A DNA stretch of 64,000 nucleotides. Source: an uncultured Chloroflexia bacterium. Lineage in GTDB: Bacteria > Chloroflexota > Dehalococcoidia > GIF9 > AB-539-J10. Each line of letters opens with the position of its first letter. Position 1 is the first letter of the stretch. Below the pieces are notes generated by a model, which worked only from the letters and a program-made list of their open reading frames with translations, was not told where the DNA came from and searched no databases. Of this stretch, positions 32,170-64,000 are shown one piece after another. A program made the position numbers and the translations under genes. Where the stretch lies: contig CAVYNS010000003.1 in the NCBI GenBank assembly GCA_963769975.1, positions 384,434 through 448,433 of the forward strand, written 5' to 3'.

Positions 32170-32177
32170 GAGCACCG

Positions 32178-42155: not shown

Positions 42156-42165
42156 CTATACTTTT

Positions 42166-45320: not shown

Positions 45321-45593
45321 CGATGAATAAAACTGTTATCCTCAGCGTTTTACTTGTGCTAAGCTCAGCGTTCTGGATTTCTGGCACCAGGGCTTCAATC
45401 TCAGAAGTTGCACAACATAGTTTAGTTAGCGTTCCCTGAGACTTACCTGCACATTATGGCTGATTGTTACCTTAGGATATCAGCTTATCAACCAATAGGC
45501 ACAGGCTTGAGACCACAGGTCGTCTTAGTACGTTGTCATAAGGTAATAAATTCCTTATAATAAACTCACCTGGCCTGAGAGGGAAGAGGCAAA

Positions 45594-48317
45594 GTGGTTG
45601 ACTACAGCATAGAGGTTTCAGTTACCGAGGGTACGACAAATACTGAGCGTGGAAACTTGTTAGTAGAGTTGATGCGCGATGTATTTGATGCGACTAACCA
45701 TACCAGTGGTCCGTCTATTAGGGTCACTGGTATGGAGATAGATACTACTGCTACTCATAATGTCACCGGCGAGAAGATATATGCCGAGTGCAAGGCTTAT
45801 AGAGAACCTATACCAGCAGATACTATTTCAAAACTATTGGGCAACGTTTTTCTTAAGAACGTAGACCAGGGATGGCTGGTAACTACATCTAAGCTTTCTA
45901 AGGACGCCGAGGGATCAAAGGAAGAGTGGGAGAAGAAACCTCCAGAAGAACGTCGTCGATTACAGGTCTACAATCCTCCTAGACTGCTAACTCTGTTAAT
46001 AGCTTCAAACCGTATCTTTGATCCAGCCAAGATAACAGCTACCTCAGGAACGGAGCAGGGTAACTGGTATTTTCTTCTGACTAATCTTGGTCGTTACTGG
46101 GCAAAGTTGGTAGTAGAGGCAGGCATACCGAGTAGAGTCATCGTCTATAATGCACAGACAGGCGTGTTAGTAAACGATGCGGAGCTTTTGAAAAAACTCA
46201 AACTGACTGACACTAGCCTCCGCGATTTCAATTGGCCAATTCCTTCTCCCAATGGTTCAGGGGTGGGAGAGTTGCTTGCCTACTTATCGGAAACGGTTGT
46301 TGATGTCGCGACTGGTGATACTTGGGCGGATTATCGTCCTGCCAGACCTCAAGACTTTGTGGGTCGGCATGATCTTCAAGATACTATGCGAGATTTATTT
46401 CTAGGTATTAGGAATAGAAGTACTAACACTCGTTTATTCTCAATAACTGGACCGTCGGGATGGGGTAAAAGTTCTTTAATTGCGAAACTACGGGACCGCT
46501 GTAGTAATAAGGCAAATCGTAAGAAATTTTACATGACTGCATTTGATATGAGAGCCGCCAAATCGTCAAACTATGTTTCCGCTGCTCTCCTAAGGTGTTT
46601 CTCGTCAGCGATCCAACGAAATTTTATTCTTCGGCCTGTTATGCCACTGCAAGTGGGAGCTCCCACAACGCCTCTTGAAAGTGAATCCTTACAAGATTGT
46701 TTACAACAGCTTAAAGATAAGAACAAAGTACTCATCTTAGTTTTTGATCAGTTTGAGGAGGTACTTACTAAACCCGAATTGAGGCAGCTATTTGATAGAC
46801 TTCGGTTACTCGCTTTGTCAGTGGATGCACAAAAAGAGAATCTTGTCCTTGGCTTTGCTTGGAAAAGCGATGCTTTTCTTCCACAAGATCACCCCGCGTA
46901 CTATCTTTGGCATCAACTCAAGGACAGACGTCTTGATCTGGCTGTGCCACGTTTTGGTTCAAAGGACGTCTCGCAAGCCCTAACACACTTCCAAACCGAA
47001 TTGGGACAACGCTTGAATCCTGTTTTACGCTCACAATTGGTACAGCATTGTCAAGGTTTTCCTTGGCTACTCAAAAAGCTGTGTATTCATGTTCTTAACC
47101 TCGTAAGACGTGATCTAAGTCAGCTGCAGGTGCTAGAGCGAGGACTAGATGTACGAGGACTGTTCGAAGCAGATTTAAGTGGGCTTTCCAGTAAGGAAAC
47201 ACTGTGCCTTAAAGAAATCGCGCGGTTGGCACCTGTTGAATGGGTACAAATTGTCGAACAATTCGGGAATGATACATACACTTCACTACTAGGTAAACTG
47301 TTGATAGTTCGTAGTGGCGACAGGCTGAACCCATATTGGGATATTTTCGGAGACTATCTGCGCACCAATGAAATCCCACATGTGCCTGTGTCTTTTCTGC
47401 CAGGAACTGAAATCCGAACTTTAGCAAGAGCAGCTGTTATTACTGTTATGAACAGGCCAGCAGGAGTCACATTAGAAAAACTGAGCACATCGCTGTCTAT
47501 AAATAGTAGGTCAGCAGGTAATGTTGTTCGAGATTTACAGATGTTTAGTCTTGCAGAGAGAAAAGGTGATCATATCGTTTCAACGATAGCTATCAAGGAG
47601 ACAAGAGATGCAGTCGCTGAGATCGCAAGACTAATCGCTCGCGCCTTAAATAACCACACCTTTACAATTATACTTCGTAGGAATGTAGCAAAGGGTTCAG
47701 AGATTACTGAACAGGATTTGCTTGGGTTCTTTAATGAGGCATTCCGGTATGCGTCACTCCGTGATGTCACAAAGAGAATGTACACACTCCGACTCGCCAA
47801 ATACTTGACGGCAACCCGCTTTCTCGAGCGTGTTCCTAGCGTATGGATACTCATTGATGAATTGACGGGACAGTTGATATTAATGCCAAGAGTTAGAGGT
47901 GCAGGTGAGTTTCTAGGAGATGCTCCTCCTGGAAGAGTTTTGGAGGTGCTGCAGAAGCTGTCGGAGTCTCCTGTGCCGAGAGCAGTCTTGAATAAGTCTC
48001 GTCTGAGGAACGCGACAGCATGTGCAATAATGCTGGAGCTCGCAAGCACACGTGATGGCATCGTTTACAGGCTAGAAGATACTAAGGACATGGAGGCTTC
48101 ACTAGTTGGAGCAGTAACCAACACTAGGTCTTTTAAGATAGTTTCAGAGCTTATCTGCAAATCTCCCAACATATCAGCAACGGAAATCGGTAAAACTCTG
48201 TCTGCCCACCTTGATTTGCCTTGGAGTGAGGCATCAAACCTTCGCCGTGGTAACGCGCTTCGTAGGTGGGTTCGGTGGTCGCAAAGTCAGACTTCCACAC
48301 GATCGGAGCCTGTATAG
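45594..48317 (+). CDS. STAND-type P-loop NTPase with an N-terminal Mrr-like PD-(D/E)xK nuclease domain (Avs-like antiviral STAND candidate)
   Basis: 907 aa; N-terminus GMEID ... EKIYAECKAY (D ... ExK); Walker A GPSGWGKSS; Walker B LILVFDQFEE; ~450-aa C-terminal helical region. Confidence 0.75.
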   Translation: MVDYSIEVSVTEGTTNTERGNLLVELMRDVFDATNHTSGPSIRVTGMEIDTTATHNVTGEKIYAECKAYREPIPADTISKLLGNVFLKNVDQGWLVTTSKLSKDAEGSKEEWEKKPPEERRRLQVYNPPRLLTLLIASNRIFDPAKITATSGTEQGNWYFLLTNLGRYWAKLVVEAGIPSRVIVYNAQTGVLVNDAELLKKLKLTDTSLRDFNWPIPSPNGSGVGELLAYLSETVVDVATGDTWADYRPARPQDFVGRHDLQDTMRDLFLGIRNRSTNTRLFSITGPSGWGKSSLIAKLRDRCSNKANRKKFYMTAFDMRAAKSSNYVSAALLRCFSSAIQRNFILRPVMPLQVGAPTTPLESESLQDCLQQLKDKNKVLILVFDQFEEVLTKPELRQLFDRLRLLALSVDAQKENLVLGFAWKSDAFLPQDHPAYYLWHQLKDRRLDLAVPRFGSKDVSQALTHFQTELGQRLNPVLRSQLVQHCQGFPWLLKKLCIHVLNLVRRDLSQLQVLERGLDVRGLFEADLSGLSSKETLCLKEIARLAPVEWVQIVEQFGNDTYTSLLGKLLIVRSGDRLNPYWDIFGDYLRTNEIPHVPVSFLPGTEIRTLARAAVITVMNRPAGVTLEKLSTSLSINSRSAGNVVRDLQMFSLAERKGDHIVSTIAIKETRDAVAEIARLIARALNNHTFTIILRRNVAKGSEITEQDLLGFFNEAFRYASLRDVTKRMYTLRLAKYLTATRFLERVPSVWILIDELTGQLILMPRVRGAGEFLGDAPPGRVLEVLQKLSESPVPRAVLNKSRLRNATACAIMLELASTRDGIVYRLEDTKDMEASLVGAVTNTRSFKIVSELICKSPNISATEIGKTLSAHLDLPWSEASNLRRGNALRRWVRWSQSQTSTRSEPV

Positions 48318-48454
48318 ACCCCTTGCTGAACTTGTGTACAAACAAGGTCTTCATTAGGTTTATTAGGTGCTCGGTGAGGGTGAAATTAATATAGCTTATT
48401 CATGGTTAGGTAGCTGACACATTTCTAATAATCCGTCCCGACGTCACAATATGA

Positions 48455-48500
48455 CGAATTGTTACGCTAGAGGTAACAAAACAGGCTTTTGTGACTTTAA
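48455..48500. repeat. mosaic intergenic repeat family, partial copy E
   Basis: ttgttacgctagaggtaacaaaacaggcttttgtgac matches the 3' module of copies B and C. Confidence 0.45.
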
Positions 48501-48567
48501 GCCGTTGTTCTCCTCCTTCTGCCCTATGTTCTAGACAGACAATATGTTGAACCTCTAGACTATAGAC

Positions 48568-49329
48568 ATGGCACGAGAAACTTGGCATCAACCAACTATG
48601 GTAGAGAAGCGTGAAACCAGTATTAATGGGCAAACCATCACATATACAGTCAAGCGAAGCCTTAGGGCAAGGCATGTTCGGCTCGAGGTGAGACGGCAAA
48701 CGGGGCTTACGGTAGTTGTTCCTCACTCTTACAAGATTGGGCAACTCCCTAGACTTCTAGAATCGAAGGAACGATGGATCTCAAGTAGCTTGGCAAGATG
48801 TAGCAATTTCCAATCGCCTTATGCCGAGAAGGAACTCGGGAGTGGCGATACTGTCCCCTATCTTGGCCGAGACTTGAAGCTAGTCAAGCGGGAAAACCAC
48901 AGTGAAGTTGATAGTGTAACGCTAGAGGGAGATACACTGGCAGTGAGTCACGGATTATTTAAAAATGGTATCTTGGAGTTGGCTTTGGAACAGTGGTATC
49001 GGGCGGAGGCTGCTAGGCTGATAAACGAGAGAGCAGATAGGCTGAGTTCTCAGATGGGCATTCACTGCAAACGAATTGTCATACGAGGTCAAAAGACTCG
49101 CTGGGGCAGCTGCTCTCATAAGAAAAATCTTAGCTTTAACTGGAAACTAATAATGGCGCCAGAGCCTGTGATCGACTATGTTGTTATCCATGAACTTGCC
49201 CATCTGAAAGAGATGAATCATTCAAAGAGGTTCTGGGAATTGGTAGCTCAACACTGTCACAGATGGCGGGAGTATAAGAAGTGGCTCAGGCAACACGAGG
49301 CAAACCTTACTGCGAAACTCTGTCCCTAG
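48568..49329 (+). CDS. DUF45/YgjP-family metal-dependent hydrolase (WLM/SprT-like HExxH)
   Basis: 253 aa; HELAHLKEMNH zinc-binding motif. Confidence 0.75.
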   Translation: MARETWHQPTMVEKRETSINGQTITYTVKRSLRARHVRLEVRRQTGLTVVVPHSYKIGQLPRLLESKERWISSSLARCSNFQSPYAEKELGSGDTVPYLGRDLKLVKRENHSEVDSVTLEGDTLAVSHGLFKNGILELALEQWYRAEAARLINERADRLSSQMGIHCKRIVIRGQKTRWGSCSHKKNLSFNWKLIMAPEPVIDYVVIHELAHLKEMNHSKRFWELVAQHCHRWREYKKWLRQHEANLTAKLCP

Positions 49330-49431
49330 AAATAGCCTTGATTGCACATTTTGGACATTTGTTATTGAAACAAATGCCCAAAATAGGGCCGAGAGGGGCG
49401 TATCAGTTCGTCCTGAAGTGCTTCAGTCGCG

Positions 49432-50517
49432 CTACAGGTCAAACTCTGTCCAGACCGCTCCGTGATCCGACGCTGATGCGGTGATGCCGTTGTCCTGCAC
49501 TTCCGGCCAAGCAATTACTTCCCCGTTGGAGTACTTTGCAACATCAAAAATACCTCTGCGTTCGACTCCGGCCTGTCTGCACGCATTCTGGAGCGGTTCC
49601 GAGACAAGAATGAAATCAAGCTGCTGATTCACATCGTAATGGTATGTCCATCTGTCCTCAGGTTTTGCGATTTTCAGCGCCAGTACATCTTTTAGCTCTC
49701 TCACATTCATCAGCGGCGATAGTGACTTGCTGTCAGGCGCCGCGTTGAAATCTCCGAGTACCACGACTTTGTCTCTCGTCAGGTCATGATTCCGCTCTCT
49801 AATAATGTCACCCACCCGTTGTGCTTGACGCAGTCTTTTGGCATCGTTTTGCTCCTGTGAGCCGTATCCTTGACTCTTGAAATGATTGACGAAAAGGTAC
49901 AGGAAATCGTTGTCTGGGAGCTTGATTGTGACTTCAAGACAGTCGCGAGAGAAAATGCGTGAACGTCCAACTTTCTCAAACATGTGGGTCCTGATATCGC
50001 ACATCTCGAAGCGAGAAAGGAGCGAGACATCAATTCCACGGGGATCAAATGCGTCAATCAGCATACTGTACGGATACCTCTTTCTAATGAATTGAGAATT
50101 GAATATATCAAGGGTGGGTTTGCTCTCTACCTCAATCACGCTGATGATGTCCGCGCTCACAGAGTTGATGACTTTCGCAGTGTTCTTTCTTGTGATTTCG
50201 GTGAAGTCGTCGGCTTTGAATGCGATGAAGCCACCCCAGTCATCCCTGCCTTTCGCTTTTACGCCGACGACGTTGAACTTCCGGTCACGCTTGAATAGTT
50301 TCTGGCGCACTTCATTTATGTCGATGAAATCCTTTAGTTCTTCATAGAGACCAAGAATCTTCTTGCCATCGTAGGCCTTCTTCTCCAACTCCACTTGTAG
50401 TTGGTCAACTTTGGCGAGTATTTCATCCCCATCTCTCCGCTCTTCAAAATTAAAGACTTTTGCGCGGCGAAATAAGTTCTCCGCATTGAACGTCGCAATC
50501 TTTAGAGTGTCACGCAT
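49432..50517 (-). CDS. endonuclease/exonuclease/phosphatase (EEP) family protein
   Basis: 361 aa; N-terminus KIATFNAENLF; motifs VLGDFNA and SDHGAVWTEF. Confidence 0.75.
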   Translation of the reverse strand: MRDTLKIATFNAENLFRRAKVFNFEERRDGDEILAKVDQLQVELEKKAYDGKKILGLYEELKDFIDINEVRQKLFKRDRKFNVVGVKAKGRDDWGGFIAFKADDFTEITRKNTAKVINSVSADIISVIEVESKPTLDIFNSQFIRKRYPYSMLIDAFDPRGIDVSLLSRFEMCDIRTHMFEKVGRSRIFSRDCLEVTIKLPDNDFLYLFVNHFKSQGYGSQEQNDAKRLRQAQRVGDIIRERNHDLTRDKVVVLGDFNAAPDSKSLSPLMNVRELKDVLALKIAKPEDRWTYHYDVNQQLDFILVSEPLQNACRQAGVERRGIFDVAKYSNGEVIAWPEVQDNGITASASDHGAVWTEFDL

Positions 50518-50636
50518 CTATTGTCCTCCAGTTGAGCTTACGCCGATTCAGTATACCATAGCGGCGTTAGACTTACCGAACCTGGTTCAAAACCGTGTAC
50601 TACAAGGCCCGGGGCACGAATCGCCCAAATGTTAAG

Positions 50637-51569
50637 CTAGATATTGTTCGCGTTTCCTTGGAATATTTGCTTTCTACAAATCAAGGTGACGTCTCGGACT
50701 AGGCCTAAAGTTCTGGGAATTCGCTCTATTATAGTTGGTATTGCCTGAACGATTCCGAGTCCTTGAGTATAATCTTGTGGCTCCAGAAAACCTCCTGGAT
50801 ATCGTGTATAACTCTCGTGAGGGAAGGTTAACACTCCAAAGATATAACACTGACCTGCTGCCTGACCAAATTTCACCGAGGAATAGGTAACAATTGATTC
50901 TTTGTACTCAGGTAGGTATTCTGCAAAAACGGTTTTGACTTCATTTTCCTTCTGCTCTAATAATGGATGTGTTGTGAAGAGTGCGTCAGCAACTCTGATC
51001 AGTCCCTCTATGCCGAGTACACGGGGGGACGAGTTCATGGGCAGCTTGGCTAGCCGCTGTTGATCACTGTTAACTAGTTTCTTCACTTGGGTGATGGCTG
51101 TCTTGTAGTCTCGGTTATCAAGTGAGTTCAGTATACTCATCATCTCGTTGCCGGGCTTTTCTTCAATGATCTTCAATAGAGGTTGTGGAGTTCGATGAGT
51201 TGTGAGCAGTTCCTTAATGGTTACATCACCAATCGATAAGCAGAAAGCTTTCATGGCCTTTTCAATTGCTTGCTGGATGTGATAAACGCTCAGAGCAAGT
51301 TCCCCATGTTGAAAGAGTAAATTTGCCGCCCTATGATCTGCTTCTCCAGCGCCTAGGTATTTATCAGCAATGTCCAAAGAAGACGAATCTCGCCTTATCA
51401 CGACATGCTTGAGGGCACGCTTTACGAGTACTTCTGTTCGGAGCGAGTCTATCTGGTTAGCTTTCGGCATCAACTTCTTGATACCCGGCTTAACCCTAAG
51501 CCATAGCGTCTCGATTAGTTCATTTCCATTTTCGTTTGCCATTTGGTCGCCCGGAATGAATAACATCAT
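50637..51569 (-). CDS. hypothetical protein (310 aa)
   Basis: ORF only; follows the EEP gene on the same strand. Confidence 0.45.
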   Translation of the reverse strand: MMLFIPGDQMANENGNELIETLWLRVKPGIKKLMPKANQIDSLRTEVLVKRALKHVVIRRDSSSLDIADKYLGAGEADHRAANLLFQHGELALSVYHIQQAIEKAMKAFCLSIGDVTIKELLTTHRTPQPLLKIIEEKPGNEMMSILNSLDNRDYKTAITQVKKLVNSDQQRLAKLPMNSSPRVLGIEGLIRVADALFTTHPLLEQKENEVKTVFAEYLPEYKESIVTYSSVKFGQAAGQCYIFGVLTFPHESYTRYPGGFLEPQDYTQGLGIVQAIPTIIERIPRTLGLVRDVTLICRKQIFQGNANNI

Positions 51570-51776
51570 TCAGCCATTCAAATTCTACCACGATTCGCAT
51601 ATGGGAAGCGTGCTAACTTCGGTTATGAGGATAAACAAACCGCTAGATTGTATAGCCAATGTGACTAATCAACGAAATCAAGATTTGAACCTTAAGCGCT
51701 CCCTCTCAAAACTAGCTTGTCTAGGGACTTGCTGTATTAGCGAGAGTGCTCCGCAGCAAGCTGCGGGGAGGTTCAC

Positions 51777-54470
51777 TTAGAGATCGCGAATTATCTCGAT
51801 TGCAGGCTTTTGAGCAGCGCGAATCATCACAACACCGGCGCCTGATACTGCCGCTATCACTATACCTAGCACCAGAGCTAGGTATGTCCAGGGCACAAAA
51901 AGGTGCTCCGGCGGCGGATCGAACACACCGCTCATTATTCTGACCATGACTAGGGATAGTGACCATCCGGCAAGTGCACCGAGGACTATGCCACCGACGG
52001 TCAGGAAGAACGCCTCGCTCCATACAAAGGAGGACAACTGTTTGGCGTTTGCCCCAAGGGAGGCTGATATAGCGAATATCCTGCGGCGCTCGGCCAAGCC
52101 AAGAAGGAAGACGAGGCCCGAAGCCCCCGCAGCCAGAATCAATGCAAACAGCAGTTCGAGTTTCGTGAGGCCGGATAGATCAACCGCCGTCAAGCTAGAG
52201 AGTGTGACATGCAATTGGGTTTCGACATCCTGAACAGTCGCTCCCGATGCTGGGCCGAGTAGGTCGCGGATGCGACCGGCTACAACCTGTGGGGAGCCGC
52301 TGGTCTTCACAAGCAGGGTTTCGTAGGCTGACGAACCGGTTTCTTGAGCGATGTACGATGCATTAGCGATGAGAAAGGAATCTCGGGGCGCTGTAGGGAA
52401 TTCGCGTACTATCCCCACGTAATGGAAGTCCACCAGATGGTAAGCGTGGTCGCTGGCAAACTGAAGCCGGATGCGGATTAAGTCACCAGGCTGAAGCTGG
52501 AAATCATTGACGGTCTCTGCCGATACTAGGATGCCATCGGGTCTTGAGGCCAGTTTGCTGAGCATCTCATTCGCGCTTCCGCCTGAGAAGAAAGCGTTGG
52601 ACATCGGGGTTGCCTTGCGGATTAGCTCGGGGTCTATGCCGTAGAGGTCCTGGAGGTCTCTACCCACATATGCGAATCGGTGCTGCATAGGCTCTGCGTC
52701 GATTACACCCGTAATATTCTCTACAGATTGGGCCAACCCCTCCGGAAATCCGCTTGAAGCAGTCGTTGAAACCGTTACATCAGCACCATTGGTGAGTTGA
52801 GCGTCTACCCGGGCCTGATGCGAGTAGGTGGTGTTAAATACCGCAACCGTCACGGCAAATGAGAAGGCCAGCGCGAGGATGACAAGCCCCCTTGATAGCA
52901 GACTTCGTTGCCTTGACATCGATGCCGTTACCACCCCTGACAATCGTTGGGCGATCAGGGTTAGAGCTCGACGTAAGAATGGTTTTCCACGTGCCAGCGT
53001 AAGGTTGGAAAGTCGCCAGATCAGCAAGGCGAAACCAACCCACAGCATGAGGGGGGCCAGTAAAGTTAGGTAATTAATAGAAATGGTCGGGATGCCTTCC
53101 GGCGCGAGGATGACCTGGTAGGCATTTCGCATTGATTGCCAGAATATGATCCCACCGCCGGCAAGCAAAATGATGTCAAGATAAATGAGCGACCACAGTG
53201 GCGGGCGGGGATTCGTTATAGTTAACTGTGCCGCTCTAACGGTGAGACTTCTAGCATCGCGCCACGCTGGTAGAAGGATTGTCATAAAAGAAATGGCGAA
53301 CCCCAAAACCACGGCGGCGATAACCCAAGACACCGCCTGTATTGGCGTTGCTCCGAACCGCGAGGTACCGAACGCAATATGACCTGCGAGCACTGCTCCT
53401 CCGAGGCCCAATACTATTCCTATGGTTCCAACCAGCGCAGCTTCTGCTGCAGCAAGCCTTAGAACCTGCCGGGGCGATGCTCCGCGGATTATGAGAAGCG
53501 CCTGTTCCCGCCGCCGCCTGTCGCCGCCACTCATAGCGATGACGTACACCAACAATGCGGCAAGGACGACGCAGGGAAGGCCGAGAAACAGGAATAATAT
53601 CTGTGCGTAGGTGGCATCAGAACGTGCCCCATCCAGTTGAGCACCGAGATTATTACCCACAATACCGGCGCCTCCAAGTTCTGCTTCAAGACTATGTGCC
53701 CGGTGGATAACTTCGCTAAAGGCTGCCGTGGGATCCGCAGGAAGATCGCTCGCAAGCTTCACGTGAACCTGCATGTGAACGGAATTGGGATTACTCTTTG
53801 CTAACTCGTCAAACATCTGATGCCAGGTTGAGAGGGGCATGAGGACAACATTGTCAGGTGGTGCGGTGGGGTTGGCCCCGGGCACGCCACCGATGCTTTG
53901 GAACAGAGAATCGGCTGCCGGCAGATCGACGATTCCCTGCACTAGAAGCTCCGTTTGTGTCCCACCAGGTAGACCAACCGTCATGGTATCTCCCACCGTT
54001 GCTTGAAGATTTGCCGCGGTCTGTTGCGCCAACAATATGCCTTGGGTAGATCCGACCAGGAACCGGACCTCTCCGAGGAATGACGACGCATACCCGTCAG
54101 GGATCCCAAGGGCCTTGCCCTGTCCTGTTGTCTGAACGGTCCCACCTGCGGAAGTCCGTAGATAAACAACATCAGCGTAGCCCACAGGTTGGGCCTCTAC
54201 GACCCCCTTGGTCTGCTTGATAGTTTGAATGGACTGTATCAAGTCTGCATCCTGCGAGAGCTGAACCTGCCAGTCGACCGGGACCCCAGCGGTGGCTTCT
54301 TTGGTCATGTGGGCCCTGCTGGATACAAAGAACATGCCTAGCGAGGCAATCAGGCTCACTGCGAGACCGACACAAAGAACCATGCCGATCAAACGCGCTC
54401 TTCTTCTTTGTATTAACCCGCTGATCCAAGTCAGACTGAGCAAATGATCACCCCATCTGTAAATGCCCAT
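51777..54470 (-). CDS. ABC transporter permease, FtsX/MacB-like, duplicated (10 TM)
   Basis: 897 aa; two FtsX-type four-helix modules separated by large extracytoplasmic domains. Confidence 0.8.
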   Translation of the reverse strand: MGIYRWGDHLLSLTWISGLIQRRRARLIGMVLCVGLAVSLIASLGMFFVSSRAHMTKEATAGVPVDWQVQLSQDADLIQSIQTIKQTKGVVEAQPVGYADVVYLRTSAGGTVQTTGQGKALGIPDGYASSFLGEVRFLVGSTQGILLAQQTAANLQATVGDTMTVGLPGGTQTELLVQGIVDLPAADSLFQSIGGVPGANPTAPPDNVVLMPLSTWHQMFDELAKSNPNSVHMQVHVKLASDLPADPTAAFSEVIHRAHSLEAELGGAGIVGNNLGAQLDGARSDATYAQILFLFLGLPCVVLAALLVYVIAMSGGDRRRREQALLIIRGASPRQVLRLAAAEAALVGTIGIVLGLGGAVLAGHIAFGTSRFGATPIQAVSWVIAAVVLGFAISFMTILLPAWRDARSLTVRAAQLTITNPRPPLWSLIYLDIILLAGGGIIFWQSMRNAYQVILAPEGIPTISINYLTLLAPLMLWVGFALLIWRLSNLTLARGKPFLRRALTLIAQRLSGVVTASMSRQRSLLSRGLVILALAFSFAVTVAVFNTTYSHQARVDAQLTNGADVTVSTTASSGFPEGLAQSVENITGVIDAEPMQHRFAYVGRDLQDLYGIDPELIRKATPMSNAFFSGGSANEMLSKLASRPDGILVSAETVNDFQLQPGDLIRIRLQFASDHAYHLVDFHYVGIVREFPTAPRDSFLIANASYIAQETGSSAYETLLVKTSGSPQVVAGRIRDLLGPASGATVQDVETQLHVTLSSLTAVDLSGLTKLELLFALILAAGASGLVFLLGLAERRRIFAISASLGANAKQLSSFVWSEAFFLTVGGIVLGALAGWSLSLVMVRIMSGVFDPPPEHLFVPWTYLALVLGIVIAAVSGAGVVMIRAAQKPAIEIIRDL

Positions 54471-55122
54471 GCTCTATCGACCATTGGGTAGGGAGGAAGT
54501 CGGCCACGACTCTGTCATGCGTTGCAACCACCAGGGTAGCACCGATCTCTTCAACGAAATCTAGAAGAGAGTCCATCAGATACCGGGAGCCCTCACTGTC
54601 TTGTTGCCCAGTCGGCTCATCGGCCAGCAACAGCGCGGGACGTGTAACTAATGCCCGGGCGATACCTGCTCTCTGTGATTGGCCCCCCGAAATCTCCTCA
54701 GGCAAGCTGTAGCCAACGTCTGCAAGTGACATGCGTTCCAGCATTTCCCAAGCAGCCTTCAGCGCTTCGGGTTCGGGATCACCGGCTATAAGAAGAGGCA
54801 AAGCCACGTTTTCGGCGACGGTCAGGGGCGGAATGAGGCTGTGCCCCTGGAATGCCATTGCCACTAGCCTAGGCCTCAGCCGCTCTTTTGCTCCTAGAGC
54901 AGGCCACTGGATCATGCCGTTTGTGGGCGAATCAAGCCCCGCGACCAAGTGGAGCAACGTCGTCTTCCCGCTTCCCGACGAGCCGACCAACGCTATGCGC
55001 GAATGGGCAGAGATCTGAAAAGTAGCGCCCTCCAGCGCGATAACGGCGCGCTCACCTGTACCGTAGATTTTCCCGATGTTATCCGCTCTAACCAGTGGGT
55101 CATGCATCGGTGATCCTGCCAT
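54448..55122 (-). CDS. ABC transporter ATP-binding protein
   Basis: 224 aa; Walker A GSSGSGKTT, ABC signature LSGGQSQR, Walker B LLLADEPT. Confidence 0.85.
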   Translation of the reverse strand: MAGSPMHDPLVRADNIGKIYGTGERAVIALEGATFQISAHSRIALVGSSGSGKTTLLHLVAGLDSPTNGMIQWPALGAKERLRPRLVAMAFQGHSLIPPLTVAENVALPLLIAGDPEPEALKAAWEMLERMSLADVGYSLPEEISGGQSQRAGIARALVTRPALLLADEPTGQQDSEGSRYLMDSLLDFVEEIGATLVVATHDRVVADFLPTQWSIEHGHLQMG

Positions 55123-55789
55123 CTGAGAGTCGAATCAGGCGGTTGGCCTCTCTGGCCACGCGCTCGCTGTGCGTGACCACAACAACAGTACCCCCGGCCT
55201 CGGCCCTGTCCCTCATGATTTTCAAGATTGCTGCCTCGTTCTTGGCATCAACCTCGCCGGTCGGCTCATCGGCAAGGAGGATAGGTGGGTTGTTTGCAAG
55301 AGCTACGGCTAGACCGGCACGTGCTGCCTCTCCTCCGGAGAGTGTTGATGGCCAGGCGTTAGCCCGGGCCTCTAAACCTACAGCGGCCAAAATGGTACCG
55401 GCATCTGGATGCTCTCCCTTGACCAAATACTGAGCAACTTTAATATTCTGTGCGACCGTCAGGTGTTCCAATAGATTTCCTGACTGCAAGAGCACCCCCA
55501 TCCACTTGGCTCGCAGCTCAGTTCGCGCTGTTTCCGGTCGTCTGGTGATTCGGTCCCCAGCAATATCAACATGACCTCCGTTAGGTTCGTCGAGGCCAGC
55601 GATGCAGGCAAGCAGAGTAGATTTTCCACTTCCGGAGGGGCCTACAACCGCCACCATTTCGCCAGCGTGGACCGATAGGGATACACCACGCAGTGCAAAA
55701 GTCTCATCGTCCCCGTTATGGTAAAACCGGTATAGTTCTGAGACACGGATGAGGAGCTCGCCTGAGCAAAGGCTACCCGTTAGAGCCAT
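55100..55789 (-). CDS. ABC transporter ATP-binding protein (second ATPase)
   Basis: 229 aa; Walker A GPSGSGKST, signature LSGGEAAR, Walker B LLADEPT. Confidence 0.85.
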   Translation of the reverse strand: MALTGSLCSGELLIRVSELYRFYHNGDDETFALRGVSLSVHAGEMVAVVGPSGSGKSTLLACIAGLDEPNGGHVDIAGDRITRRPETARTELRAKWMGVLLQSGNLLEHLTVAQNIKVAQYLVKGEHPDAGTILAAVGLEARANAWPSTLSGGEAARAGLAVALANNPPILLADEPTGEVDAKNEAAILKIMRDRAEAGGTVVVVTHSERVAREANRLIRLSDGRITDA

Positions 55790-56352
55790 TTGAAGCTCTC
55801 CGAAATAATTTTCCAGGGATCCACATTATCTGCGCCCACCGGAGACGCAAGCATCAGATTCACCTGGAGACCGTTTCGATAAAACTCGTAAAGGAGCACA
55901 TCCATCCTGTACTTCTTTCCAGTGACCTGGTTTGGTGCGCTGTCCTTCTGGTATTTGATAAGTATCGCCGTACCTCCGGGCAAGGTGACCTGCTTGGTTT
56001 CGACAAGCTGGAATGCAGGCTCGGTGCTTGCTAGCTCCGGCACATCGACCGAGTTTGCCCGCTCGACAGTCGGCTCTGGAGCATCAGGAACCCACCTGAT
56101 GGATACTATGTTCAGCTTGTCGGTGAATTCAGTACTTGACTCAGAGGTCGACTGCGCCCATCCCTCCGGTACCTTGACCTCAAAACTCCCGCTGGTCGGC
56201 TTGTACATCACGAAGACCTGGTTGTCTGGAATATCACCAGAAGGATTAACCCCCTCGTTGCTTGCGGATTTTCCGTGTGCTAAAGCCAACAATACCGACC
56301 CGGTTGCTATTAATACTATTAATATCAGATAGACCAACCTTTTTTTCTTCAT
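55780..56352 (-). CDS. secreted/lipoprotein component of the ABC system
   Basis: 190 aa; signal peptide MKKKRLVYLILIVLIATGSVLLALAHG. Confidence 0.5.
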   Translation of the reverse strand: MKKKRLVYLILIVLIATGSVLLALAHGKSASNEGVNPSGDIPDNQVFVMYKPTSGSFEVKVPEGWAQSTSESSTEFTDKLNIVSIRWVPDAPEPTVERANSVDVPELASTEPAFQLVETKQVTLPGGTAILIKYQKDSAPNQVTGKKYRMDVLLYEFYRNGLQVNLMLASPVGADNVDPWKIISESFKWL

Positions 56353-56584: not shown

Positions 56585-56760
56585 ATTTGCCGTTCACTCC
56601 CGGTTCATGTTGCTGTGTTTACATGGTCACAATAACACTCAGTTTTTGTCTTCAGGGTGTGTGTCTGACTACGCTGTTAATACCTTTTGTTGCTTTGTGG
56701 TTACAGGTATCAAGTCAAAGCAAGAAGTCACAAAACGCTAAAAAGTGCAATCAGATATAA
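56585..56760. repeat. mosaic intergenic repeat family, copy D (rearranged)
   Basis: tttgccgttcac ... ggtcacaataacactcagtttttgtcttcagggtgtgtgtctgac ... gtcacaaaacgctaaaaagtgcaatc. Confidence 0.55.
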
Positions 56761-56910
56761 CTAGGTGATCGCATAGTTGGTACTAAGTTGACTTGCGGAG
56801 AGGATGAGGTTTGGTGCTTAGAGACTGAGCGACAAATTGTCGAGTCCCACCATCTCGGTAACCATCCTTGTTTCACCCTGCCTCAGACATGAAGTAAAAT
56901 AGAGTATGTT

Positions 56911-57980
56911 GTGAGAATTCTCGATCAGGAGGGAAATACCGTGACGGATAGGAAAACAGACAACTTAGAGGATACACTTAGAATGGTACAGGAGGTCTTG
57001 ACAGCTAACAGAAAAGACCTCCGCTCACTGCTCTACAAAGACATTATCCTGAATTCGCTGAAGTGCAAACGAGATGAGCTTGATATTCTTGATCTCAAGG
57101 TCATCAATCGGGCAGTGGCCGAGTTCCGACATGCCGCGTGTGTCTTCAAACCGTACAGGATGGTTCGTAAAGTGTCCATGTTTGGTTCCGCTCGAGTAAC
57201 CAGGCACAGCCCCGACTATGAGCTAGCGCGCAGACTCGGCCGTTTGCTAGTTGAAAAAGGGTTCATGGTAATCACTGGAGCTGCAGAAGGTATCATGAGG
57301 GCGGAATTGAAGGTGCCGGCGCTGAAAACAGTTTTGGAGCTAACATCCTGCTCCCAATTGAAAGGGGGCCTACCAGTATAATTCGAGATGATCCAAAGGT
57401 GGTTCGGTTTAAATATTTTTTCACGCGCAAAATATTCTTTGTAATGGAAGCTGATGCTATTGCGCTATTCCCTGGGGGCTTTGGCACGCATGATGAAGGA
57501 TTTGAAGTGTTAACGTTGCTACAGACAGGTAAAGCACCGCCAATGCCTGTAGTGCTTATGGAATTGCCAGGGGAACAGTACTGGGAAACTTGGGATCAAT
57601 TTATAAGGCAGCAGTTGCTAACCCGGCGCTTTATCTCCCCGGAGGACCTTTCCCTTTACAAGATCATCCATTCTCCCGAGGAGGCGGTAGAATGGATTAG
57701 GTCATACTACGCAACCTACCATTCAACACGCCAAGTACGAGACCAGCTTGTCATCAGGCTAGAGAAAGAGCTTCTGGGCAGTCATATTAGGAAACTAAAC
57801 GAGTCTTTTCAGGACCTCGTTGAGTCTGGGGAAATTGCCAAAACACCCGCTCTAAAAGAGGAAGAAGACGAACCGAACCTCTCATTAAAACCCAGAATTG
57901 CTTTTGCGTACAACAAAAAAAGTGCTGGGCGCCTTAATCAGATGATATTAATGATAAACCAACTGGGCCAAACAATTTGA
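56911..57980 (+). pseudogene. LOG-family (TIGR00730-type) Rossmann nucleotide-binding protein, split by a 1-nt frameshift
   Basis: ORF1 (56911-57381) carries FGSARV ... VITGAAEGIM. The other frame, open from 57255 (track ORF 57399-57980), continues GGIEGAGAENSFGANILLP ... ADAIALFPGGFGT. The frames switch near 57295-57300. Confidence 0.6.
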
Positions 57981-58002
57981 GTGTTTGTGCAATCAGCAAC
58001 AA

Positions 58003-60210
58003 TCATTTGCTGTTCGAATTGTTTTCCCCTTCACTGAAAAACATACTCATGAAAGGTTCCCGACTAGATGTGTCGCGCGCTAGACCTACCCAGGATAAAA
58101 TACCTGCTTCATCCATTTTATGCACACAGTATTCTGGCAAGAACATCATGCGCTCAAGATTTGGTTTTTGTGTGCCATCTCCACAGAAATAGGTGAACCC
58201 CCATTGATTAGATGTGTCGATTATCGTGAAGTCTTTGAGCGCTCCGCCGCTATCTTTGGATCGACGCAAGGTGGACACAATACTTTCCTCGATGGCCTTT
58301 CGAAACGGATAACTAATGTCAAGTAGAGAGCAGCAAACATCAGTGTAACCCGGATTGTGAATCCGCTCCAAAGCCAGCAAGATGCTTTTCAGATGTCTCG
58401 GTATGAACTGACCCGGTCTTGGGACTCTTAACCTCAATCCTCTCTTATAATAGAAATATTGATCAAAATCGCTGGTTGCGTTAACAATATGAATCTTTTC
58501 TATGGGATCGGTGACCTTGGGCATCGGGATTTCCAGATTTAAGATAAAGTAGCACCCAAAATAGTCAAGTTCGTCAGATGCGTATACCTTCTCCGATACA
58601 CTCATCCTCTTTTTGAAGTAATGCACAAATTGAGAAGGAAAATCGATAAAATCTGAGATCAAACTCAAACTTCCTATGTAAATAGGCCAAGGATATTCAT
58701 CTGCTGAGAACAGTCCCAGAGATTTTAACTTTCTTGGATCTGCTGCCAGCACGTCAAATGAATCAAAGGTTACACTTATGAGAAAATAATTCTTGATGGA
58801 CCTCTTATCTATCGTAATTGTCGAACCGTCAGACAAAGTAAATTCTGCTTGGTCACTCATTTTTATATAGTCCTTGGCGCGTCTTGCCTGTCTAAAGGTC
58901 CTTTCGATAGATTGCTGAATATCATGTACTATAGGCTCTTTCACGCCTTTTTTTGATGCCTGGGTTACTGGGTGGGTTGCACATTCTATCAGGAACAGAT
59001 TGTTGTCATGTTGAACCAGAACGTCTAACTCGACTCTGATCCTTCTGCTATTTTCTATCACATTGTATTTAAGTCTATTGTAGGCAGCAGCTGTTGGGAA
59101 AATCTTCTTGAAAAGCCTCAATGATTCCTGTTCTAAGTAGCGTGACCTAAGACGGTTATATTTTTCTCGATACAATGAATCTCCCATCAACTCCTTGTCC
59201 AGGGAATAAAATAGACAGCGGGCCAAATAGGCTGAGGAATGGAAGAGATATGCCTGATCAAGTTTGACTACAGGGGTGTCCTGAAGAGGGTTGTCATCTA
59301 ACGGACTGGTGAACTTACCATCAACCTGTCCCGGTTCAATGGAAACCCATTTTAGAAAAGAAACCAAAGAATCTTGATCGTTAGAATTAACATTTTGAAG
59401 TAGTTCCTGTTCGGAAATGAAAAACAAACCTCTAGCCAGTTCTGGGAGTGTATTCAGAACATGCCCTGCTTCAACAGATTGCTTCTGGCTGCGTTTCTTT
59501 TTATAAATACCTATAGGCCAGGCGGTCGCATTAACTTCTGTTGAGGCCAGTTCTGTAAAAACCGTAATCAGTCTTTCTTTTTCCTTCTCGAATCTATTAA
59601 TTTTGAGGCGAGAAATCGTCTTTACAAAGGCAATCGCTTGAGCTATATTAAATCCAAACTTCTGTTCAAGGTACCGTGCCTGTGAATCAAATAGCTGTTG
59701 TGCCATCTCAAGAAAGTACGTGTCATAAGTTTCACCTCTGACGAGCATATAGTTCAGACGTGCATTTGTTAAGATATTCCACTTATCCTCGTCTGCATGC
59801 TCTGAGCTGTAGAATTGTGCTGCGCAGTATTCATTGCACAACCAAAATATTTTCTCGGAGAGGTCACGAATTGCGGTAGCGTCTTTGATGCTGGGATACT
59901 GCAGATTCCGAACATTATTTTTCAGTGCCAAAGCTGTAATGTATTCTATGAATGCCGGAGAATTTGGGTCTACGTACCCCCTCCGTACTTGTGCAGAACG
60001 TGCCATGTTTAATACTACTATTAGGGGCAATAAGGTTGACTTATCAAATCTGGCAATAGCGGACTCCAGTTGCGACGCTTCTGATTTGATTTGGTCATGT
60101 AGCTTAGCGGCATCTGGCAGTTCAAGCTCATCAACCCGCTTCTTATCCTTTGAACTCTTACCACCTAGCCACACTAGCTGGATACGTTCATTGAGATTTC
60201 GTCTTTTCAA
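58003..60210 (-). CDS. hypothetical protein, 735 aa, second gene of the TIR operon
   Basis: Long ORF 83 nt downstream of the TIR gene on the same strand; no P-loop and no recognisable catalytic motif. Confidence 0.55.
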   Translation of the reverse strand: MKRRNLNERIQLVWLGGKSSKDKKRVDELELPDAAKLHDQIKSEASQLESAIARFDKSTLLPLIVVLNMARSAQVRRGYVDPNSPAFIEYITALALKNNVRNLQYPSIKDATAIRDLSEKIFWLCNEYCAAQFYSSEHADEDKWNILTNARLNYMLVRGETYDTYFLEMAQQLFDSQARYLEQKFGFNIAQAIAFVKTISRLKINRFEKEKERLITVFTELASTEVNATAWPIGIYKKKRSQKQSVEAGHVLNTLPELARGLFFISEQELLQNVNSNDQDSLVSFLKWVSIEPGQVDGKFTSPLDDNPLQDTPVVKLDQAYLFHSSAYLARCLFYSLDKELMGDSLYREKYNRLRSRYLEQESLRLFKKIFPTAAAYNRLKYNVIENSRRIRVELDVLVQHDNNLFLIECATHPVTQASKKGVKEPIVHDIQQSIERTFRQARRAKDYIKMSDQAEFTLSDGSTITIDKRSIKNYFLISVTFDSFDVLAADPRKLKSLGLFSADEYPWPIYIGSLSLISDFIDFPSQFVHYFKKRMSVSEKVYASDELDYFGCYFILNLEIPMPKVTDPIEKIHIVNATSDFDQYFYYKRGLRLRVPRPGQFIPRHLKSILLALERIHNPGYTDVCCSLLDISYPFRKAIEESIVSTLRRSKDSGGALKDFTIIDTSNQWGFTYFCGDGTQKPNLERMMFLPEYCVHKMDEAGILSWVGLARDTSSREPFMSMFFSEGENNSNSK

Positions 60211-60292
60211 TTACGCGAACTCACAGAATGGGTTTTTCCTTAATCCTTCCCGCGCAGGACAGCGTGCATTCACATTCATTTGAGAGAATGCT

Positions 60293-61324
60293 TCACCTAG
60301 CCTCAATGGCTGGGAGCAAATCCTCTAGACCTCGTTGGTAGTTTGTCCTGAAATCTGCGTACCGCTTATCCGCAATGAGAGGTGGAATGTCACAATCAGC
60401 AATCAGAACTGGCAGGACTACTACATTCCTTGTTTGTAGTTCACGCATTAAGCCAGCACTCAGCTCTTTCTCAACCCAAGACGATTTTACTGAATTAGGC
60501 GATAGAATGAGTATGAGGTAGTCGTTCCTATTAATACTTTCGTTGATCTTCTTCGCAATAGAGTCGCCAACCTTTATTTCCCAACGATCCCACCATACTT
60601 GCTTCCCTGAGTTATTCAGGTCGTTCACGAGGCGTTCTACAAACTCAGCATCCTTACTTGAATAGCTGATGAAAGCGCTGGGTATTGTCTTGTCCTTTTT
60701 TAACACTGGCTTACGATTCTTCCTATAGGCAGACAGTTCCGCTTCTACCACAGGAATGATTTCAGCTGGCATGGTCCAATCTGGGTATTTATTACTGCCG
60801 GTTTTAAAGATCAGTTTTAGAGTGCGGAATCTTGGTAGCAAATAGGATGGGACAAATTCATAACCGAGCGCTGATTCAATGGCATCAAGAAGCTCGAAAT
60901 ATTCACTTCTTCCGCCTTTATCGATAATTCCTCGCAAGACACCGTAGGCTTTGTCTCCCCAGCGACTGAGCGCCTTTTGCACGTTCGCACGTACAGCATC
61001 CCAGGAACTTTCGACCTTCAGTCGACCACTTTCATCGCAAGTGTAATAATTTCCCTGGAATCCACCGAGGTCAAGGCCATACTTTGGCGGTTTCTTCATT
61101 ATGAGTTTGACCAGCGTTTCGTCAGAAATCACTTCTGCAATAGCTAAGGCCGCCTTTAACCTAGAATCATCCCCATATCCAATGTCCCAGTAATTCGCGA
61201 ATTTCTCAAAATAAGGAATACGCAGGATCTTACCTACATTATAGAGGTCCTCCAGCCAATAAAGGCGCATCAATAATAAGGCTCTTTCTTTTGTCCTTGC
61301 ATCCGTCAGTTCGTTAGATGGCAT
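60293..61324 (-). CDS. TIR-domain protein (unknown ~200-aa N-terminal domain + C-terminal TIR)
   Basis: 343 aa; the C-terminus FISYSSKDAEFVERLVNDL ... WWDRWEIKVGDSI ... ILSPNSVKSSWVEKEL matches TIR core motifs, including the catalytic-region Glu. Confidence 0.75.
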   Translation of the reverse strand: MPSNELTDARTKERALLLMRLYWLEDLYNVGKILRIPYFEKFANYWDIGYGDDSRLKAALAIAEVISDETLVKLIMKKPPKYGLDLGGFQGNYYTCDESGRLKVESSWDAVRANVQKALSRWGDKAYGVLRGIIDKGGRSEYFELLDAIESALGYEFVPSYLLPRFRTLKLIFKTGSNKYPDWTMPAEIIPVVEAELSAYRKNRKPVLKKDKTIPSAFISYSSKDAEFVERLVNDLNNSGKQVWWDRWEIKVGDSIAKKINESINRNDYLILILSPNSVKSSWVEKELSAGLMRELQTRNVVVLPVLIADCDIPPLIADKRYADFRTNYQRGLEDLLPAIEAR

Positions 61325-61628
61325 GTTTTAGCCTCGCGTTCTCGTGAGAGTTATGACCCAGATTCCTATTTTACCATTTTTAACATGTGTACCAAACGGT
61401 TCATGATCCTAGCTGTAAAACCTTGCTTATCTCTACGCATGGTATGCCAAGGCTTAACAATTGTCAGTATTGTTTAATGCAAAGAACACCGGTCTTCGGA
61501 GACTGAGACTAGGGTGGCGTTTTCATCGTGCCGAAATGAGACCCGACGGCCCGACACCACGAGGGGTTACACCTGACTACAACTGCCAACACTCGCGATA
61601 AGCGAGTAGTTAAGCGTTAAAATCCGAG

Positions 61629-61653
61629 AGGGGAAGCGTCAAGCCTCCCCTCA
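61629..61653 (-). terminator. putative rho-independent terminator after the hsdM-S gene
   Basis: Minus-strand hairpin GAGGGGAGGCTTGACGCTTCCCCTC followed by tcGGATTTT. Confidence 0.35.
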
Positions 61654-61680
61654 GCGGCTCTTTATTCCCTTGGTAAGGAA

Positions 61681-63660
61681 TCACGACGGCAGAAAGTCAG
61701 AGATAGTAACGCGCCTCTTTGAAGTTTTCATCAGCCCTTCTGTTTCACGTATTATCCGCTCTGCCAACTTAATAACTTCTTCATCCGACGAGGAATCTCG
61801 AAGCAATGTTGCTGCGTCAATCATTGCAGCTGCTTTGGTGGCGATTAGATGAGACTCAATTGCCTCATCTTGAAGGTCAGGCTTTGGGACGGGAATTATT
61901 ACACCACCGAGTTGACCGCTGCTCATTGTTACGTTAGTAGCTCCACACATCAGTGGGACCAAAAGTTCGTCGCACATGGCACTCAACAAAATGTGCAAAT
62001 ATCGCGGCCGGATAATGTCTTCATCTTTGACGAATAGTGCACACATAGTACTCGCCAAGGCAAATTTTCCCTCCTGAAAGTGGATCCGTTTGATATCCGC
62101 TTTGCCATGTCCCGCCGACGAGACTAATGGAATGCAGATCGCACTGCCTTCGAAGTCCCAGTGGTCGGCCGTTTTTCGCTCATCTGCTGGGACTACCAAG
62201 ACGAAGTCGCCTGGCGGAGTCGCCATATTGGGAGATAGCCCATCACGGATATCACACAGATCACCAAGGCGCATCAACGGGATATCCTTGCGATGTATGA
62301 CTCGGTTGGGGAGATCATGCCATCGGCCCAGAAGATGAGCCTTGTCGTTGCCCAGAAGTGTCACTTTAGATATTTCATATGACCTGACGCTAGTGAGAGT
62401 CCGTTTCCAAGCACGCCTCTCACTCACAGCACGCTTAAACGAAAGGATACACTGCTTAGCATCCTCAAGCTGCGATCCTGCTATTGGATCTCGGGTATCG
62501 GATTGAGAAAAGCCATCGTTTTCGATCTCCACGAACAGCACTGAATCGCTCTGGTGTGCGAGACTGCAGTCGATTATCAAGATATGAGTCTTGACACTTG
62601 CGTAAGGTTTAAAAACTCCGTGGGGAAGAGTAACATCGGCGAGCAAGAATCCTTTCTCCAACAAAGTCTTCCGTAATTGAGTGTGACCCGACTGTGCAAC
62701 AAAATGGATCCCTTCGGGTACGATAACCCCTGCCTTGCCTGCCGGAGTAAGGTGCTCGATTATGTAGTCCAGAAACAGAACTTCGCTGCGCCTGGAATGC
62801 ACCGAGAAGCGGTTATGTGGCTTGATGCCCCCTTTCGGTGTCATGAAGGGTGGATTAGCCATGATGACGTCTGCATATTCGTTCCAGCGCTCTTGACTCG
62901 TCAAAGTGTCGTACTCGGCGATGTGTGGGTCGGCGAAGCCGTGCAGGTACATGTTCACAAGCGACAGGCGCACCATGTCAGGCGATATGTCGTAGCCCTT
63001 GAAGTTCTGGGCGAGACGGCCTTTTTCATCCGGCGTCAGGGTGCTATTGCGCTCAGTATCGGTGTTGGCCTTGAGGATATGCTTGTAGGACGAGATGAGG
63101 AACCCGGCGGTACCACAGGCTGGGTCAAGTACAGTCTCGGTCTTTTTAGGGTCGACCACCTCAACTATGAAATCGATGATGTGGCGCGGGGTTCGAAACT
63201 GCCCGGCTTCACCTTGAGAGCCGAGTACGGAGAGCAAATACTCAAAGGCATCGCCAAGCCGTTCGCTGTGGTCGTAAGTGAACTCGTCGATGATCTTGAG
63301 GAAGGCGCGCAGGGTTTCCGGATCGCGGTAGGGCAGATACGCATTCTTGAAGATATCTCGGAAAAGCGGTGGAATACCGGGGTTCTCCGGCATCTTAGCA
63401 ATGGCGTCGGCGTAGAGGTTCAGGGTTTCGTGTCCCCCCAACCCAGAGCGCATTAGCTTGGACCATCCGTACTTGGCGAACTCATTGGCAAAGAACTTGC
63501 GCTTACCACCCATCTCCTCGGATTCGGCGTCCATATCGTCCATGAACTTGAAGATCAACGCGATAGTAATCTGCTCAACCTGACTCTTCGGGTCGGGTAT
63601 TTTGCCCACAAGAATATCTCGGGCGGTATCGATACGGCGTTTAGTCTCGGTGTCTAGCAT
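61681..63660 (-). CDS. hsdM: type I R-M N6-adenine DNA methyltransferase fused to a single specificity (TRD) domain (HsdM-S fusion)
   Basis: 659 aa; motif I VLDPACGTAGFL, motif IV NPPF; the C-terminal ~230 aa resembles an HsdS target-recognition domain. Confidence 0.8.
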   Translation of the reverse strand: MLDTETKRRIDTARDILVGKIPDPKSQVEQITIALIFKFMDDMDAESEEMGGKRKFFANEFAKYGWSKLMRSGLGGHETLNLYADAIAKMPENPGIPPLFRDIFKNAYLPYRDPETLRAFLKIIDEFTYDHSERLGDAFEYLLSVLGSQGEAGQFRTPRHIIDFIVEVVDPKKTETVLDPACGTAGFLISSYKHILKANTDTERNSTLTPDEKGRLAQNFKGYDISPDMVRLSLVNMYLHGFADPHIAEYDTLTSQERWNEYADVIMANPPFMTPKGGIKPHNRFSVHSRRSEVLFLDYIIEHLTPAGKAGVIVPEGIHFVAQSGHTQLRKTLLEKGFLLADVTLPHGVFKPYASVKTHILIIDCSLAHQSDSVLFVEIENDGFSQSDTRDPIAGSQLEDAKQCILSFKRAVSERRAWKRTLTSVRSYEISKVTLLGNDKAHLLGRWHDLPNRVIHRKDIPLMRLGDLCDIRDGLSPNMATPPGDFVLVVPADERKTADHWDFEGSAICIPLVSSAGHGKADIKRIHFQEGKFALASTMCALFVKDEDIIRPRYLHILLSAMCDELLVPLMCGATNVTMSSGQLGGVIIPVPKPDLQDEAIESHLIATKAAAMIDAATLLRDSSSDEEVIKLAERIIRETEGLMKTSKRRVTISDFLPS

Positions 63661-63666
63661 GAGATC

Positions 63667-64000
63667 TCCTTAGGCGGCGAACTGATCCACAGGAACATAG
63701 TCCTTGACATATTCAGGAACCAGCGTACGGTACTTCTCCGGAACGGCACGGAAGTCGCGTGTGGAGAACATGGCATTGGTGGCCAGATCGGTGAAATTAC
63801 GGCTCTCTATAATGTGACGTACCTGATCGCTGGTGATGTAGGCTTTGAAGTAGGTCTTGATAGCTGGGATAGCCTCGACCATCTCCGGTTTGGTATCGGC
63901 GATGAATTTGACGAACTCTTCTTCGAGCAGTTCATCTTTGGACTTGAAGCGTGGGATGAAACCGAAGATCTTTTCGAGCATTTCACGCAGTGTTAGGCGG
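63667..64000 (-). CDS. hsdR: C-terminal end of an upstream gene, probably the type I restriction R subunit (HsdR); truncated by the window edge
   Basis: The reading frame is open to the window boundary; it ends 7 nt before the hsdM start; the tail sequence is compatible with an HsdR C-terminal domain. Confidence 0.4.

Follow-up and report, generated by a model that had tools for sequence, protein, structure and literature searches.

A conserved type II-like LOG gene, probably a recent frameshift pseudogene, at the edge of a hypervariable region beside TIR genes

The question raised by the plus-strand locus at 56911-57980 of the window (the whole stretch of 64,000 nucleotides analysed here) is whether a LOG gene has been broken in the organism, has been broken only in the assembly, or is the remnant of a component of the TIR genes next to it. 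The locus holds two ORFs in different frames, one at 56911-57381 (156 aa, frame of 56911) and one at 57399-57980 (193 aa, frame of 56913). Translation of the N-terminal frame gives ...FGSARV...VITGAAEGIMRA, or ...KVSMFGSARV...FMVITGAAEGIMRA over a fuller stretch, followed by 26 unrelated codons up to a TAA, and the C-terminal frame reads GIEGAGAENSFGANILLPIE...ALFPGGFGTHDE..., includes ...PGGFGTHDE... and runs up to the TGA at 57978-57980. Restoring one base joins the two into a protein of 356 aa that aligns without gaps with 120 intact homologues, shares 96-97% identity with the intact 356-aa proteins P0136 and P0139, and matches the PF03641 profile (Lysine_decarbox, LOG) with 85.7 bits against a cut-off of 27. 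Consequently, the locus is a split LOG gene far beyond chance. The uninterrupted frame that a whole Rossmann fold would require is absent, as one base is gone at 57302/57303. The initial annotation, which had proposed a LOG-family gene with a single-base frameshift here, is therefore borne out by the ORFs, the Pfam profile match and the orthologue alignment.

The alignment with intact orthologues, which had been suggested in that annotation as a check, fixed the lesion as one base absent between 57302 (C) and 57303 (G). The DNA at the site reads ATGAGGGC-GGAATT in the window, ATGAGGGCTGGAATC in L081, L083 and L086, and ATGAGGGCCGGAATT in L096; codon by codon, ATG AGG GC- GGA ATT in the window is matched by ATG AGG GCT GGA ATC in the first three and by ATG AGG GCC GGA ATT in the last, leaving the Ala131 codon as GC- where the intact alleles have GCT or GCC. 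The change of frame had been placed near 57295-57300; the change itself stands, and its true site (57302-57303) lies a few bases further on. Similarly, the N-terminal ORF exists as described, with a length of 156 rather than 157 aa, the final 26 of which come from read-through in the wrong frame. At the lesion, the longest homopolymer is GGG (GGG C GG, with a loss of CC to C at most), in line with the earlier remark that the switch lacks a long one. The in-frame N-terminal part of the gene extends over 56941-57302 (121 codons) when counted from GTG 56941, or over 131 codons from the alternative longer start GTG 56911, which is chosen by some gene callers and yields the 356 aa. GTG 56941 is likely to be the true start, since a Shine-Dalgarno AGGAGG (56927-56932, by direct sequence reading) lies 8 nt before it and most orthologues (346 aa) begin at the equivalent position. 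The nucleotide-binding loop TGAAEGIM (57274-57297) is within this part. Beyond the lesion, the out-of-frame tail of 26 codons occupies 57303-57381 and ends in the TAA at 57379-57381. The C-terminal part of the gene occupies 57303-57980 in the -1 frame and contains R173 (57426-57428, by alignment with CgLOGII), the PGGFGTHDE motif (57471-57497, residues 188-196) and a conserved extension of about 90 aa that reaches the stop codon.

The repaired protein also matched PF18306 (SLOG cluster 4; 33.6 bits, cut-off 26.3) and fell just under the cut-off of TIGR00730 (91.4 against 96.35 bits). Its closest PDB matches are the type II LOGs 9us2, 1wek/TT1465, 5zi9 and 5wq3/CgLOGII (E values from 8e-34 to 5e-27). 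R173, D195 and E196 align with Arg155, Asp177 and Glu178 of CgLOGII, of which Arg155 and Glu178 are catalytic and Asp177 is the type-II-typical adenine-binding residue (PMC5379747). Type II LOGs are characterized by this Asp before the catalytic Glu and by an additional N-terminal helix through which hexamers form (Seo & Kim 2017); in the repaired protein D195 is present, and the alignment with TT1465 starts at residue 20 of the chain, within the helix region. Thus, CgLOGII (Cg1261, 5WQ3, Corynebacterium glutamicum) and TT1465 (1WEK, Thermus thermophilus) share with the window LOG the PGGxGTxxE motif, the catalytic Arg and Glu and the type II Asp, and the match to TT1465 reaches its N-terminal helix region. 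In contrast to these proteins, the window LOG has TGAAEGIM as its first motif in place of GGGPG(I/L)M, carries about 65 extra N-terminal residues and the conserved C-terminal extension of about 90 aa, which lies outside any Pfam model, and is encoded by a gene broken by a frameshift. The pyrimidine/purine nucleotide 5'-monophosphate nucleosidase PpnN (YgdH) likewise carries extensions at both ends of a LOG core, and weak similarity to it covers the region before the LOG core (NF038390 profile positions 89-337; PDB 3bq9 and 6gfl). However, the extension domains differ, and the window LOG, with 41.5 bits against an NF038390 cut-off of 450, is no PpnN equivalog or orthologue. Judged from these comparisons, the conserved chromosomal gene would encode a type-II-like LOG, a predicted nucleotide 5'-monophosphate phosphoribohydrolase whose Rossmann fold is flanked by a helix region on the N-terminal side and by a conserved extension on the C-terminal side.

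This family is widespread, with more than 586 genome loci and members in Krumholzibacteriia, Cyanobacteria and Verrucomicrobia as well as in Nitrospira, where the protein is still about 50% identical to that of Dehalococcoidia, which fits a housekeeping gene. The best named hits of the window LOG are labelled 'Thermoplasmata archaeon': it is 71-75% identical at the amino-acid level to proteins of MAGs labelled Thermoplasmata or Methanomassiliicoccales (L001-L004) and 66-69% identical to those of other Dehalococcoidia MAGs (L005-L010). This closer match to the archaeal MAGs may stem from mis-binned contigs or from transfer between domains in sediment communities. An archaeal origin of the window itself was rejected in view of its GlyRS, 89-96% identical to proteins of 'Dehalococcoidia bacterium' MAGs, and of its bacterial-type GpsA, MerR, DnaJ and ClpB genes; a Mur-ligase-like gene is also present, and the window is regarded as bacterial and Dehalococcoidia-like.

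The consequences of the lesion for the product can be read from the arrangement of the two frames. With one base of the Ala131 codon deleted two residues after TGAAEGIM, translation from the normal start would run into 26 wrong codons and stop at 57381, so that the nucleotide-binding loop would be made on the N-terminal ORF and Arg173, PGGFGTHDE and Glu196 would fall into the C-terminal frame. Translation could restart in that frame at GTG 57399 only; this codon opens its sole callable ORF (57399-57980, 193 aa), lacks an evident Shine-Dalgarno, and would leave out 32 residues (132-163), of which many are invariant across the family. The frame would be restored by a -1 shift at AGG GCG GAA, and neither a slippery heptamer (X XXY YYZ) nor an A/T run was found there (57295-57310). 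Because the catalytic residues are out of frame, the sole restart comes too late and no recoding signal is seen, the enzyme activity of the window allele is predicted to be lost. In other respects, the gene has kept its quality. Where at least 95% of the 120 homologues agree on a residue, the repaired protein departs from it at a single column (D290G), whereas an intact homologue does so at 2.4 columns on average; in a comparison of 11 close sequences the repaired protein shows one private substitution, fewer than most of them; its dN/dS is 0.22 against L096 and 0.11 against L083; and a promoter-like site and the Shine-Dalgarno are retained. Since no decay is found besides the deletion, the inactivation appears to be recent. 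Our preferred explanation, which we hold to be quite probable, is a real and recent single-base deletion by which a conserved type-II-like LOG gene has become a pseudogene in this strain. The mutation would be a real one in the natural population, too young for further decay to have followed.

It is important to consider that a gene with a single lesion may also be intact in the organism, with a base dropped from the consensus, and possible assembly error had been raised in the initial annotation. Such an artefact would equally predict an otherwise perfect gene with zero further decay; the window holds a second single-base frameshift, located in a C homopolymer, a context typical of indel errors; and the source contig, with a length of 737 kb, may derive from long reads. 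However, exact-protein look-ups led to three contigs of other assemblies that cover the site, namely L090 (with L093 from ENA ERZ935967, run ERR476714, project PRJEB6102, a sediment metagenome), L091 (with L094 from ENA ERZ27250423) and L095 (Logan assembly of SRR28002918, the same run giving L092 as a second contig). They are 99.94-100% identical to the window and carry the identical lesion over the 29 nt across the site; gene callers split the gene there too, calling the C-terminal ORF as a separate PF03641 gene in all three and annotating the N-terminal fragment in L095 as PF18306 (weak). A SNP at 61805 separates the window from L090, L091 and L092, which are therefore no copies of its assembly. 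Two of the three assemblies have contig names beginning with k127_ or k119_, which we take to be the style of the MEGAHIT short-read assembler. These assemblies represent one strain (at least 99.9% identity), possibly from related sites, and speak for reproducible sequencing rather than for a wide spread of the allele. Furthermore, the lesion has no homopolymer, and the closest intact alleles belong to slightly more distant relatives: a metagenome contig (L096) at 95.3% nucleotide identity reads GCC GGA, P0136 and P0139 are the intact alleles at the amino-acid level, a search of 5.8 billion protein clusters gave no intact one above 97% amino-acid identity, and a scan of metagenome DNA for a closer intact allele returned the 95%-identical relative as its sole match. 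With the identical lesion in three assemblies from different runs, a one-off assembly or consensus error at the LOG site is very unlikely, and we consider the artefact explanation as a whole improbable. A gene that still functions, by programmed -1 frameshifting, by transcriptional slippage or as two assembling polypeptides, would in turn agree with the lack of further decay, with the promoter-like site and Shine-Dalgarno that are kept, and with the assembly of the same allele from several samples. Against it, the site ATG AGG GCG GAA contains neither a slippery heptamer nor a homopolymer, and the shift is shared by none of the orthologues, all of which (at least 120) are single-frame; programmed frameshifting and slippage were rejected on these grounds. 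A split functional gene is unlikely as well, given the residues omitted by the restart at GTG 57399, and it would divide one Rossmann fold into fragments, with the nucleotide-binding loop on one and the catalytic residues Arg and Glu on another. Continued function by any of these routes seems to us very improbable.

For the recent pseudogene preferred here, the relation to the neighbouring genes has to be weighed in the same way. The convergent arrangement with a TIR operon, as first described, is confirmed by two minus-strand genes, one for a 735-aa PD-(D/E)xK-like protein (58003-60210; no Pfam hit and weak PADLOC hits) and one for a 343-aa protein with a C-terminal TIR_2 domain (60293-61324), and domain profile matches identify a fusion of N6_Mtase and Methylase_S on the same strand (61681-63660). 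The 735-aa gene ends 22 bp from LOG. This proximity, the match to PF18306 ('SLOG cluster4') and the binding of TIR-made cADPR isomers by ThsA SLOG domains, as reported in two papers (PMC11204291, PMC7272460), could indicate a present or former role of LOG as a SLOG-type accessory of the TIR system, ThsA-like and now degraded. Nevertheless, intact LOG orthologues at 86-97% identity have five different and mutually unrelated sets of 3' neighbours, including two unknown genes and a type I restriction-modification (R-M) system in L081, an unknown gene, an HTH_17 gene and MmeI/Eco57I-like methylases in L086-L089, a small membrane protein and a nitroreductase in L083-L085, and a 321-aa membrane protein in L096. 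No homologue of the 343-aa TIR protein or of the 735-aa protein was detected by tblastn in about 89 LOG loci of other strains, and no TIR Pfam domain was found in the called genes of L081-L089, the 80 genome loci being screened at the BLAST level only. Conversely, the 735-aa protein is rare (13 database clusters), and neither a TIR nor a LOG gene is among the genes called near its homologues in L097 (8001-10232), L098 (8001-10214) and L100 (2105-4327), with 8 kb fetched on each side. The initial annotation had proposed asking whether intact homologues co-occur with the TIR gene pair, and the answer is negative both from the LOG side and from the 735-aa side. As the homologues of the 735-aa protein lack TIR in 3/3 loci, the 'TIR operon' is probably not an obligate gene pair. 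In addition, similarity between the window and L096 stops at 57989, 9 bp past the LOG stop, which identifies the TIR genes as inserted cargo.

The protein itself also differs from the sensor that this comparison would call for. The window LOG shares the SLOG/LOG Rossmann superfamily with the ThsA SLOG sensor of type I Thoeris and has a TIR gene nearby, but in ThsA the SLOG domain is fused to an effector (SIR2, macro or transmembrane) and paired with ThsB, whereas the window LOG is of the stand-alone enzyme type, with PF03641 and PF18306 only, no SIR2, macro or transmembrane effector domain and no conserved TIR adjacency. PADLOC gave no ThsA model match for LOG, its only hit being a marginal one to PsyrA (E=0.0036), and a ThsA-like sensor was rejected on this result together with the lack of an effector domain. 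The enzyme catalytic residues are retained, and the degree of conservation between Dehalococcoidia and Nitrospira is housekeeping-like. A degraded TIR accessory component is therefore extremely unlikely, and the other possibility offered by the initial annotation, a coincidental proximity, is the one that agrees with the neighbourhoods. The initial annotation had named a conserved LOG gene with unrelated neighbours in relatives as grounds against the accessory reading, and this is what the loci show. On the evidence of unrelated neighbours in relatives and of about 89 LOG loci free of TIR or 735-aa homologues, LOG is a conserved chromosomal gene that borders a hypervariable region with defence genes, and its adjacency to the TIR genes appears coincidental, reflecting only a hypervariable slot 3' of LOG with varied, often defence, cargo. 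One could still speculate that acquisition of the TIR island favoured the loss of a LOG that degraded or disturbed nucleotide signals or NAD-derived products made by the island, or that the two halves form a split enzyme; the only basis for such ideas is the adjacency and the youth of the lesion, and we give them hardly any credence.

The slot that begins 3' of the LOG stop extends over 57990-64000 in the window, where the variable defence region lies outside the LOG gene with its genes on the minus strand, over 8462-17690 in L081 and over 1900-8965 in L086. Defence cargo was seen in the slot of 3/5 close lineages, different in each (TIR, 735-aa and methylase genes in the window, a type I R-M system in L081 and MmeI/Eco57I-like methylases in L086), and was absent from 2/5. 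Neither an integrase nor a tRNA was seen at the junction in the window, and a tRNA scan of the whole window was negative, so that a tRNA-type integration site is not indicated. Within the cargo of the window, the TIR protein consists of about 215 N-terminal aa of unknown kind followed by the TIR_2 domain; its best PADLOC match is PDC-S66 (E=4e-22), it has weak matches to ThsB models, and no canonical ThsA-type effector is adjacent to it. The 735-aa protein contains a weak PD-(D/E)xK/CARF_PDDEXK-like stretch at residues 349-433, and in 2/3 loci (L097 and L098) its homologues adjoin genes for Eco57I/type ISP-like methylases.

On the 5' side, conservation extends beyond the coding region. About 220 nt upstream of LOG (56722-56940, plus strand) are 70-82% identical at the nucleotide level among close relatives (L081-L089; for instance 7160-7373 in L081, 9816-10035 in L083 and 579-776 in L086), and the rest of the flanks is unrelated. 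This non-coding region probably comprises a promoter and leader. A consensus scan identified the promoter-like site in it, TTCACC-17 nt-TAAAAT at 56872-56900, whose function is assumed from its resemblance, and both hexamers lie inside blocks that are invariant in a four-sequence alignment. No conserved ORF was found in the region on either strand. A riboswitch was considered and set aside, as the region gave no Rfam match, and 3/45 predicted base pairs showed a compensatory change in an alignment of four sequences only. A profile built from the region in four close relatives gave zero detections at more distant LOG loci. Conserved blocks further upstream, such as GTCACAAAACGCTAAAAAGTGCAATCAG, could represent an operator or leader RNA.

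The second broken gene in the window, mentioned in the initial annotation as an HgdB-like frameshift, does exist. It is an HGD-D family (HgdB/BcrB-like) gene at 28759-30101 (plus strand), divided into ORFs of 294 and 127 aa by the loss of one base in a C run at about 29620-29626 (CTCCCCCCTGG, where ...ELPPWHSLAFF... is expected). It is the first gene of a cluster in which an intact second HGD-D gene and two genes for BcrAD/BadFG ATPases occupy 30138-32972. The C run is a classic error context. Exact-protein look-ups with the products of 28759-29643, 30138-31304 and 55780-56352 returned no other record. In a Pfam scan of about 45 of the roughly 48 larger ORFs, LOG and HGD-D were the two visibly broken genes of the window, and no pairs of partial domains were found in ten further ORFs.

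Defence and mobile genes are numerous in the window from about 36 kb on. No ORF of at least 120 aa occurs within the 1.2 kb of 35427-36617. The block at 36000-51600 includes genes with DUF3987 and DUF3854 (42166-44369), a 907-aa protein with Mrr_cat and STAND NTPase domains (45594-48317), a YgjP-like metallopeptidase, an endonuclease/exonuclease/phosphatase gene and a HEPN protein (50637-51569). It is followed on the minus strand by an ABC exporter block (51777-56352) with an 897-aa FtsX/MacB permease, two ABC ATPases and a 190-aa secreted-looking protein. The GC content of the exporter block, about 55% in surroundings of about 46%, suggests that it was horizontally acquired, and the block is absent from the LOG neighbourhoods of relatives.

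These results emphasize that the inactivation of LOG is an ordinary event of a known kind. It resembles other single-base-indel pseudogenes in having one lesion, an otherwise conserved gene and intact alleles in close relatives, and it differs from them in nothing notable except its youth and the lack of a second lesion. For annotation, the locus is best recorded as a LOG-family pseudogene by frameshift and should not be merged into the TIR system, and for the quality of the assembly it matters that at least the LOG frameshift appears to be biological. Furthermore, the slot 3' of LOG could serve in the search for new defence cargo in Dehalococcoidia-like genomes. Of minor wider value is also the uncharacterized 346-aa LOG subfamily to which the gene belongs, with its conserved C-terminal extension and high conservation across phyla.
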